DNA from: a plasmid | NCBI RefSeq assembly: GCF_988243305.1 | Contig: NZ_OZ547139.1 | Direction: 5' to 3' (one strand) | DNA: 64,000 bases | Shown here: one piece after another, positions 1-3,000 of the stretch | Numbering within the stretch: the stretch's first letter is position 1 | How the letters are laid out: each line of letters opens with the position of its first letter | Made by a program: the position numbers

Positions 1-3000
1 CAGCCCCTGCACTTATTGGCCGGGCTGTATTGCAATAGGGTACGCATTTGCTATAATCCTTTCTGCCAGCAAGGCAGTTTGCGCCCCCTGATTTCATCTC
101 TGACCGGCCAAAGTGAGAGGATGAATCAGGGGGTTTTACTTTTTGTGGCTCCTGCCACACCCCAAGCGGTACATCTCCGGGCCGCTCTTCCCGTGCTAAA
201 TTCTGTAATAACCCCGTAAGGTTATGTAAACGCCGCTTAACATATCATGCGTTTCTAAGCGGGGCAATACCTGCGAACCCGCTTTTACATAGTAAGATCA
301 CTCTTCAGAATCGTCAAATTTCAATCCGTCGTAATAACTTTTGACAAGAAATTCAATGACTTCAGCCTGAGTGAGTTTTTTAACTTTTGTGATCTCTATC
401 AACATTCTTTTTGCATCTTTGGGGAGATAAAGGTTTAACTGGTCGTGTGTTTCCCGGATACGGTTCCGGTACTCTCTCTGGAACTCCGGGTTACTCTTCT
501 GTTCCTGGCGCTCAGTAACTCTGTTCACTACTTCCTCCCACAACATACGACTATAACCACTTGAGTATACACAAAAAACCCGCCATATTCGGCGGGTTAA
601 ACTCAATAATTGCTGTTTATGAACCATCCAGCGTCTGTCAGTTTACTCTTCAGATGCTGATAGTTTTCATCCCTATTTTTATGCGTTCTGCAGATGATTT
701 CCATATCCCTGTACGCTTTATTGATATTTGGAGCTGTGATCGTTATCGTCGTAAGCCCCGTATTTCGCAGGTTTATGATTAACTCCCTGCCGACTGACTC
801 CCATGACTCGACTGTTTCGGCTTCAAAAAATAGCCGCTCACGTTTAATACTGGATGTGGCATACAGGGATGCTACTCCTATGATTCCAGTACTGAAGTCA
901 AAGCCGATGTAAGTTCTCCGGGCCAGGTCATAGTGCTCGCAGTCCTTATGAGGCTCGAAGAAACCAGAGTTCTTCATTGAAGCAGTTACTTGGTAGAGCT
1001 TGCGGCTCCTGAAGTCCTTTTTCAACATCCAGATCAGCACTGCATCGATCACAAAGATACCGACTGTACTAAACCAGTGCTCCTGAATTGAACCGTCTCT
1101 AACCGTCCAGTATAAGCCGCTCAGAAACACGAAAGCGCTAACGAACAGAAAGAGGAATACAAACATCATCCAGAGCCATGATGCGTAGTATCCAAGCCTT
1201 TTAGGACGCGCATTGTTACTAATTTTCTTAAAGTCAGTGTTTGATAACGCATTCATATTTAAGCTCCTTTGATGCCGTCCTTGCTCTTATCTACACCTGC
1301 GTCAGGATTAAATTGCTTAGGGTTGTTACGGTTCATATTTTTGGCTCCACGACCGAACGCAGCAAAGATGTCATGAACATGGTTCTGCATATCACCCAAC
1401 ACTGAATCGTTCATCTTCTGTCCAATCCAGTTTATAACATAGTTCGGCATCCTCGCAGGAAGTGCAAATACGCGAGCCACCATACCTGTGCAAAGCCTTG
1501 CATATAACATCAAAAATCCGATCGATGACAGCAGGCCAGTGAAAGAGTCAGACTGGACCTGTTCCATAGCGAATTTAAACATCATGTTTAACGCTGTTCC
1601 CAAAGCTACGATGGCCAGAGAAGCAAAAATAAACCCCATTACCATGAGCATCGGCCGAATCATTACATCGATAAGGAACACATAACCATATGTACTCCGC
1701 TCATCATTACTCTGGCCAATGTTGATATGGGTAGCTGCCCACAGGGAAGACGCCAATACACCTGTCATAAGCGTAACCAGCCAATCTGCCATAGCAACAA
1801 ACCAATAAATCATCGGTATAAACGGCAGCCAGATAGATAGTGCAAGACCGATACCAAAGAGGCTATAAAACAGCGGGTAAACCAAGAACGAAACCGATTC
1901 TAATACGCCAGCAATAGCATCTCGAATCCCTGTAAGTTTGTTCATCATTCCCGCAGCAAAACCGGGTAGACTCTTCCCTTCTGAAACCTTCACTGCAACA
2001 TTGATAGCGGTCCAACTGGCGAGTCCAACCTCAGCTACACCTAACGTGTAATCGCCGATAGCTTTCATTTTGAGTAAAGGGTTGGTCACGTCACTGTAAC
2101 CATCACCAGTGCCGTAGTTACTCGTTGCAAGCCAGTTTGTAACGTTGAAGTCGAAAATTTTTGTAATAAGGGACGTTCCGTCTCCAGTTGTGGCGGCATT
2201 TTCAAGGCTTTTTTGATCAATGTTCCTTGCAAGTGCGTTAGATTCGGTGCCAAGAGGCGGCGTATAATTACTATTTTTCAGTTGAGAATGGTAAGCCTGG
2301 AACAAGCCTTTAAAGTAATCGATAGAGCCGATATCGCCATCGTTACTCATTCCTGAAACTACCGGCTTCAGGTTAGCAACATCTTTCATCTCGGTATTCG
2401 CAGTAGCTAATGTGTGATAGTACACACCAAGATATAGCCACCCTTTCTCTTTGATATCCGACTCCATTTTTTGAACAATTTCGTCGTCACCGGCTGCTGA
2501 ATTAGCAGCATGTTGAACCTGAAGCTGGTAATCACGCGCAGCAGTCTGGATCGCGCTTTCAACATCTGGCAGCTCACCGTCCCCGGAACGCATTTTTGCC
2601 ATATATGCTGCATTAAACTGCTCTGCAGCAGTCTTCATTTTTCCCCACAACGTGTCCGTTGCTTGTTGCTGAACGCTGTAGACGGAATCCGCATAACCGC
2701 TAGCGAAGATAGAAGTCCATCCTGCTGGACGTTGTGGCAGCGAAACGGTCCCACATACAGCTGAGCCGTTGTTTACAGATATAGAATATGTGCTGTCACC
2801 TGTTTGGTATTGCATTCTGGCGTTATTCTCATAATGTTGGCCAGAAGCCTCCATTTGAGCAATCCCCTGATTTACACCCAAAGCACAAAGGTTTGTTTCA
2901 AACATCCCTTTTGCAACAGACGCCATTTCTGGCATAACAGGGGCTATATAGACAGCTTTACCACTCGCTAATTCCGAAGCCGTTTTATCTGCAATAACAT

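Follow-up and report, generated by a model that had tools for sequence, protein, structure and literature searches.

What is the compact unit of promoter, hairpin and terminator with which this stretch of plasmid DNA begins, and what might it control? The window, meaning the entire stretch of 64,000 nucleotides that was analyzed (contig NZ_OZ547139.1 of RefSeq assembly GCF_988243305.1), had been interpreted by a sequence-only reading as opening with an antisense RNA over translation of a replication initiator, of the kind known from I-complex and related replicons. We conclude that positions 30-146 of the plus strand almost certainly represent RNAI (incRNA), which determines copy number and incompatibility in an IncM2 replicon (IncL/M, pCTX-M3-type). 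This RNAI is already known and ordinary, and adds nothing new to biology. In the account below, this analysis supplies the anatomy and homology of the unit, its complementarities and the placement of repB and repA, while the existence of the RNA and its regulatory mechanism are taken from the literature.

Identity of the replicon

Positions 1-2500 of the window are 100% identical to the IncM2 reference pCTX-M3 (NC_004464), as well as to about 80 other IncL/M (IncM2) plasmids from Klebsiella, Enterobacter, Escherichia, Citrobacter and Serratia, and for several of these plasmids the 100% identity extends over positions 1-25000. The RNAI unit itself is conserved in ~950 plasmids (blastn). When the entire window was scanned against Rfam, a single match was obtained, to PK-repBA (RF01089) on the minus strand (135->12); it covers the covariance model in full (model positions 1-124 of 124) and reaches 118.4 bits, where the gathering score is 45. 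Because this full-length leader element lies on the opposite strand, and because repA is found immediately to the left in identical plasmids such as pCTX-M3, the proposal of an antisense RNA over initiator translation is upheld, as is the prediction that the initiator gene would lie just outside the window.

Of the I-complex and related replicons named earlier, the present one belongs to a related group, IncL/M (IncM2), which is sister to the I-complex rather than part of it. The Inc RNAs of the I-complex (IncI1 ColIb-P9/R64, IncB, IncK, IncZ) are likewise single-hairpin countertranscripts directed against a leader-peptide-coupled rep leader, and there too the target loop forms an activator pseudoknot with bases beside the rep ribosome-binding site. 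I-complex membership was nevertheless rejected: the window reaches only 22.6 bits with PK-repZ (RF01087; cut-off 44) and covers model positions 5-59 only, compared to 194.5 bits for R64, and its loop is UUGGCCGG, not UUGGCG(G). A blastn search at 65-70% sensitivity returned no link between this leader and I-complex leaders. R64 (IncI1) has UUGGCGG/CCGCCA as its loop and distal bases, versus UUGGCCGG/CCGGCCAA here, so that both partners change together; these pseudoknot bases are invariant within IncL/M, and their covariation is visible only against R64. With the IncL/M RNA I of pMU604 and of the IncM2 plasmids pCTX-M3 and pNDM-HK, on the other hand, the element shares the position between repC and repB, the ~77-nt size and the pseudoknot-blocking mechanism, with no detectable difference apart from the 5' end (~64 vs. 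G77, see below). The element is thus the IncL/M RNAI proper, of IncM2 type, rather than a mere look-alike.

The RNAI transcription unit and its published counterparts

The RNAI promoter (30-57, plus strand) comprises a -35 hexamer TTGCAA (30-35), a 16-bp spacer, an extended -10 TG (49-50) and a -10 hexamer TATAAT (52-57). It scored 10/12 with the extended -10 in a promoter scan, in agreement with the near-consensus sigma-70 promoter described earlier. Across both strands of the 64-kb window, it is the only site combining a score of at least 10/12, a perfect -10 and a TGn element, a type for which block shuffles yielded 0.18 sites per window, while promoter-like sites scoring 9/12 were no more frequent in the window than in shuffles. 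The segment TGCTATAATCCTTTC (49-63) is invariant across IncM2, IncL, the 94% variant and a 73%-identical Pantoea replicon, probably because it is doubly constrained by promoter and repB signals: the -10 hexamer sits between the repB Shine-Dalgarno (SD) and the repB AUG, and RNAI is predicted to start, on the opposite strand, 2-3 nt away from the repB SD.

From a start ~7 nt past the -10 (~64) and a 3' end near 140, we predict a primary transcript of ~77 nt (64-140, plus strand), close to the "about 80" nt originally estimated; the 5' end is placed from the -10 and the 3' end from a published RNA, NDM-sR2. The transcript is predicted to begin with a small hairpin, UGCC-AGCAA-GGCA (64-76), whose complement in the mRNA lies immediately ahead of the repB SD, and which is found in the IncL/IncM variants and missing from Pantoea-type relatives. 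The remainder is dominated, as had been noted, by a bulged stem-loop of 52 nt (83-134), with an invariant lower stem (83-92/125-134), a variable upper stem (94-103/115-124) and an apical loop CGGCCAAA at 105-112, the loop quoted in the sequence-only reading, CGGCCAAAG, corresponding to 105-113. Folding of 64-140 gave -34.7 kcal/mol (z = -3.5 to -4.3), a stability matched by 0-1 of 200 shuffles, and the same hairpin was recovered in all four variants folded (z = -3.5 to -5.2). The expected T-run terminator is present as a U-run, TTTTACTTTTTGT (134-146, plus strand), preceded by GGGGG, with the 3' end of the published RNA falling at 140. A simple terminator scan did not list this terminator, since it accepts only short stems and loops of 3-8 and so misses the long stem; the call relies on the sequence together with the mapped NDM-sR2 3' end. 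With its own promoter, an intrinsic terminator and one major stem-loop in an untranslated RNA of ~77 nt, the unit has the architecture of IncL/M RNAI.

A counterpart of this RNA has been described experimentally. Kong et al. (2018) reported a 64-nt RNA, NDM-sR2, on the IncM2 plasmid pNDM-HK through small-RNA sequencing, northern blot and 5'-RACE, and identified it as a replication-control countertranscript that does not bind Hfq. Its sequence is an exact match to window positions 77-140. The conservation of the -10 hexamer could reflect the other strand, given that the -10 region overlaps the spacer between SD and AUG of repB, and the Rfam match is to a cis-regulatory mRNA element rather than to an antisense RNA family, which would suit a scenario in which only the mRNA-strand structure is functional, the plus-strand promoter and terminator being a by-product from which no regulatory RNA is made. 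However, the observation of an RNA of identical sequence by three methods (Kong et al. 2018), along with a near-consensus, extended -10 promoter unique in the window and a U-run that follows the hairpin on the plus strand only, leaves this scenario with a vanishingly small probability.

The unit was also said to carry no open reading frame (ORF), which is correct for the RNA strand except for a mechanical 67-aa ORF with a TTG start (16-219), and needs qualifying for the opposite strand, on which the repB ORF begins. The existence of this 67-aa ORF, and the fact that 9/12 promoter-like sites are as common as in shuffles, could be taken to mean that the locus is a small protein gene, or merely a chance promoter-like site near a hairpin. 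Homologues, however, differ by single-base indels at several points within this ORF, and substitutions are paired across the stem instead of following codons; in addition, the entire unit is conserved in ~950 plasmids. We therefore consider either version of this explanation extremely improbable, and retain RNAI as the identity of the unit.

The one discrepancy with published data concerns the 5' end. The NDM-sR2 5' end, G77, lies 20 nt past the -10 and immediately behind the small 5' hairpin, and as such the 64-nt form mapped by 5'-RACE disagrees both with the start at ~64 expected from the -10 and with the ~77 nt given for pMU604 RNA I in the pCTX-M3 review. One of the two ends must then be a processed or mis-mapped end. 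The pMU604 size fits a start at ~64 better than one at G77, and processing, or else a difference in mapping, probably accounts for the 64-nt form.

A second published RNA maps to the same locus: window positions 201->126 (minus strand) exactly match the 76-nt sense-strand NDM-sR1 of pNDM-HK, whose 5' end is at 201 and which extends into the 5' arm of the mRNA stem-loop I, overlapping the RNAI 3' end by 15 nt. No convincing -10 hexamer was found at the right distance from this 5' end, and instead of being independent, NDM-sR1 could derive from the 5' part of the repBA mRNA, e.g., through a cut in the RNAI duplex. An additional layer of IncL/M control, either with NDM-sR1 as a decoy for RNAI or with regulated removal of the 5' hairpin linking the 64-nt (77-140) and ~77-nt forms of RNAI, appears improbable. 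NDM-sR1 and both RNAI sizes are already published.

Elsewhere in the window, a repeated unit occurs in four copies on the minus strand (27297-27402, 28272-28377, 30862-30967 and 34345-34450), with a mean column identity of 89%. Each consists of TTGATT-18-TATAAT, a conserved transcribed segment of ~55 nt starting 7 nt past the -10, and then an ATG, and two of the four copies match the published NDM-sR5a and NDM-sR5d with 0-1 mismatches. The units resemble cassettes of promoter plus 5' leader, repeated ahead of several genes.

The repBA leader and control of repA

On the minus strand, the target of RNAI is the repBA mRNA leader, with stem-loop I and the pseudoknot region (PK-repBA) at 12-135. 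The RF01089 alignment places the proximal pseudoknot bases in the loop of stem-loop I, 5'-UUGGCCGG-3' (104-111), which is invariant in six of six homologues and is the predicted first contact of RNAI. The distal bases, 5'-CCGGCCAA-3' (16-23), lie inside repB, ~8 nt upstream of the repA SD. The two segments (111->104 and 23->16) are perfectly complementary over 8 nt despite being eighty-odd bases apart, exactly where the PK-repBA model expects such pairing, and this complementarity is kept in the 73%-identical replicon. Folding of the 242-nt mRNA leader produced a diffuse ensemble (z = -1.8), a type of calculation that cannot show a pseudoknot.

Extending the sequence leftwards through the identical pCTX-M3, as had been proposed, revealed both repA and its leader peptide. 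The latter is encoded by repB, a 16-codon ORF (MRTLLQYSPANKCRGW) that begins within the window on the minus strand (ATG at 47->45) and occupies positions 1-47 before running off the edge, its remainder being read in pCTX-M3. Shine-Dalgarno sequences are found for repB (AAGGA, 61->57) and for repA (AGGGG, 8->4). In the pCTX-M3 flank, the repB stop TGA overlaps a GTG within GGTGA, 1 nt outside the left edge of the window, while the PGAP annotation starts RepA at a GTG four codons upstream in the same frame (12->10). Because of this overlap, the coupled GTG seems a better candidate for the repA start than the annotated one, and we infer translational coupling of repB and repA from the overlap together with the literature. 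The 351-aa RepA, taken from the identical plasmids, matches the Pfam family IncFII_repA (PF02387) at 33.2 bits (cut-off 22.9), so that the locus combines an initiator of this family with a leader peptide whose stop overlaps the initiator start.

Upstream of the leader lies repC, annotated as a small replicon regulator (546->298, minus strand) and matching Pfam RepB-RCR_reg (PF10723) at 24.4 bits. The countertranscript is accordingly flanked by repC and repB and runs antisense to the repBA leader, and repA follows repB directly. In pOXA-48, RepC has been reported to repress transcription from PrepA and to lower copy number (Nat Commun 2025). Here, a promoter-like sequence TTGACG-17-TACTAT (317->289, minus strand) overlaps the end of repC and is followed by an inverted repeat, AAGCGGG...CCCCGCTT (~283->256); judging from these motifs, 256-317 is a candidate for PrepA with a RepC operator. 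The two positions that bear on the repBA promoter, this 317->289 site and the NDM-sR1 5' end at 201, disagree with each other. Beside repC, a 217-aa ORF (603-1256, minus strand) is annotated as ExcA (entry exclusion) in one record, CP042501, and had no match in Pfam; matching plasmid records carry annotations for traY along with repC and the 217-aa gene.

The way in which these parts would work together is known mostly from related plasmids. For pMU604, whose replicon is 96% identical to that of pCTX-M3, the pCTX-M3 review describes repA expression as requiring a pseudoknot in the rep mRNA, repB as a leader peptide translationally coupled to repA, and RNA I as acting through sequestration of the pseudoknot bases. 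The same RNAI/pseudoknot scheme, with RepC as transcriptional repressor of PrepA, has been presented for pOXA-48 (Nat Commun 2025). Applied to this window, the strong constitutive promoter at 30-57 would drive an untranslated RNA of ~77 nt ending at its own stem-loop and U-run, made from the strand opposite to the repB-repA mRNA leader and fully complementary to it. Without RNAI, ribosomes would translate the 16 codons of repB and stop at the codon overlapping the repA start, while the stem-loop I loop UUGGCCGG (111->104) would pair with CCGGCCAA (23->16) beside the repA ribosome-binding site, and the resulting pseudoknot would activate repA translation. When present, RNAI would first contact the UUGGCCGG loop by loop-loop kissing and then lengthen the duplex, which would sequester the pseudoknot bases and hinder repB initiation, such that RepA synthesis would drop as the concentration of plasmid, and with it RNAI, rises. 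The upper-stem sequence of RNAI would decide the specificity of this interaction and in this way would set the incompatibility group.

This scheme invites comparison with CopA of R1 (IncFII), which is likewise antisense to the leader of an IncFII_repA-family initiator and is likewise accompanied by a small repressor (CopB, corresponding to RepC) and a leader peptide (Tap, corresponding to RepB). CopA has two stem-loops, and R1 is not known to use an activator pseudoknot. Control at this locus could then be of the CopA/R1 type only, with the antisense RNA blocking translation of the leader peptide and of the coupled repA and no activator pseudoknot involved, a reading for which the family of RepA and the published parallel between RepC-RNAI-RepB-RepA and the CopB-CopA-Tap-RepA layout of R1 (Nat Commun 2025) can be invoked. 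The plus strand does yield a weak match to the CopA model (RF00042), yet its 24.4 bits are far under the gathering score of 60, and CopA was rejected as the identity of this RNA. Since, moreover, the 8-nt complementarity between loop and distal bases is placed as in PK-repBA and preserved at 73% identity, and since pMU604 repA expression is described as pseudoknot-dependent in the review cited above, we regard purely CopA-type control as very unlikely, and favor RNAI acting on an activator pseudoknot.

Variation among relatives and significance

To follow the unit across relatives, we compared six sequences: the IncM2 window, IncL (pKpn-E1.Nr7), the 94% variant OW959921, a Pluralibacter gergoviae contig, a Pantoea soli plasmid, and a contig filed under Capnocytophaga. 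All five relatives carry the RNAI unit, and scans of three of them, IncL, OW959921 and Pantoea soli, each gave a match to PK-repBA. The set was restricted to six because a search of genome contigs with the hairpin pattern CCCCCTGAT..CCGGCCAA..TCAGGGGG returned only 3 loci, which confined the covariation test to these sequences. One exact match to the 25 specified bases of the hairpin, in a Planctomycetota metagenome-assembled genome (VGYC01000322.1, 2749-2798), has unrelated flanks and was left out as chance or convergent. The Capnocytophaga gingivalis ATCC 33624 contig (NZ_ACLQ01000030.1, 7.3 kb) carries at 3478-3677 an RNAI/leader unit near-identical to that of the Pantoea soli plasmid; an enterobacterial-type replicon in an assembly from this member of the Bacteroidota suggests contamination or a mis-binned plasmid.

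Differences between variants are concentrated in the upper stem. Over the first 300 bp, IncL/IncM variants differ from IncM2 at 22-24 positions, 14-15 of which fall within 92-125, i.e., in both upper-stem arms, with no change in the loop (104-114) or the lower stem across IncM2, OW959921 and IncL. The OW959921 plasmid is 99.8% identical over 25 kb and only 94% identical at the RNAI locus. The incRNAs of IncL (pOXA-48-type) and of a second IncM type share with the present one the promoter, lower stem, loop CCGGCCAAAG, terminator, repB and pseudoknot partner, and differ in that the upper stem (94-103, 115-124) is rewritten with compensatory changes. Even in this small set of six sequences, 92% of cells were paired, compared to 38-60% in slid controls, and five pairs showed compensatory changes, with the observed values reached in only 0-3 of 500 shuffles. 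As far as these alignments indicate, an upper stem that diverges through compensatory changes around an invariant loop is the pattern that would be expected of an incompatibility determinant. Upper-stem differences are also the published basis of IncL/IncM compatibility and of M1/M2 typing (incRNA typing paper; Nat Commun 2025).

RNAI sets the copy number and incompatibility of the IncL/M plasmids by which blaCTX-M-3, blaNDM-1 and blaOXA-48 are spread, and the sequence of its upper stem serves to type IncL, IncM1 and IncM2. Its recognition at the left edge of this window means that the window represents an IncM2 plasmid read outward from its replicon.
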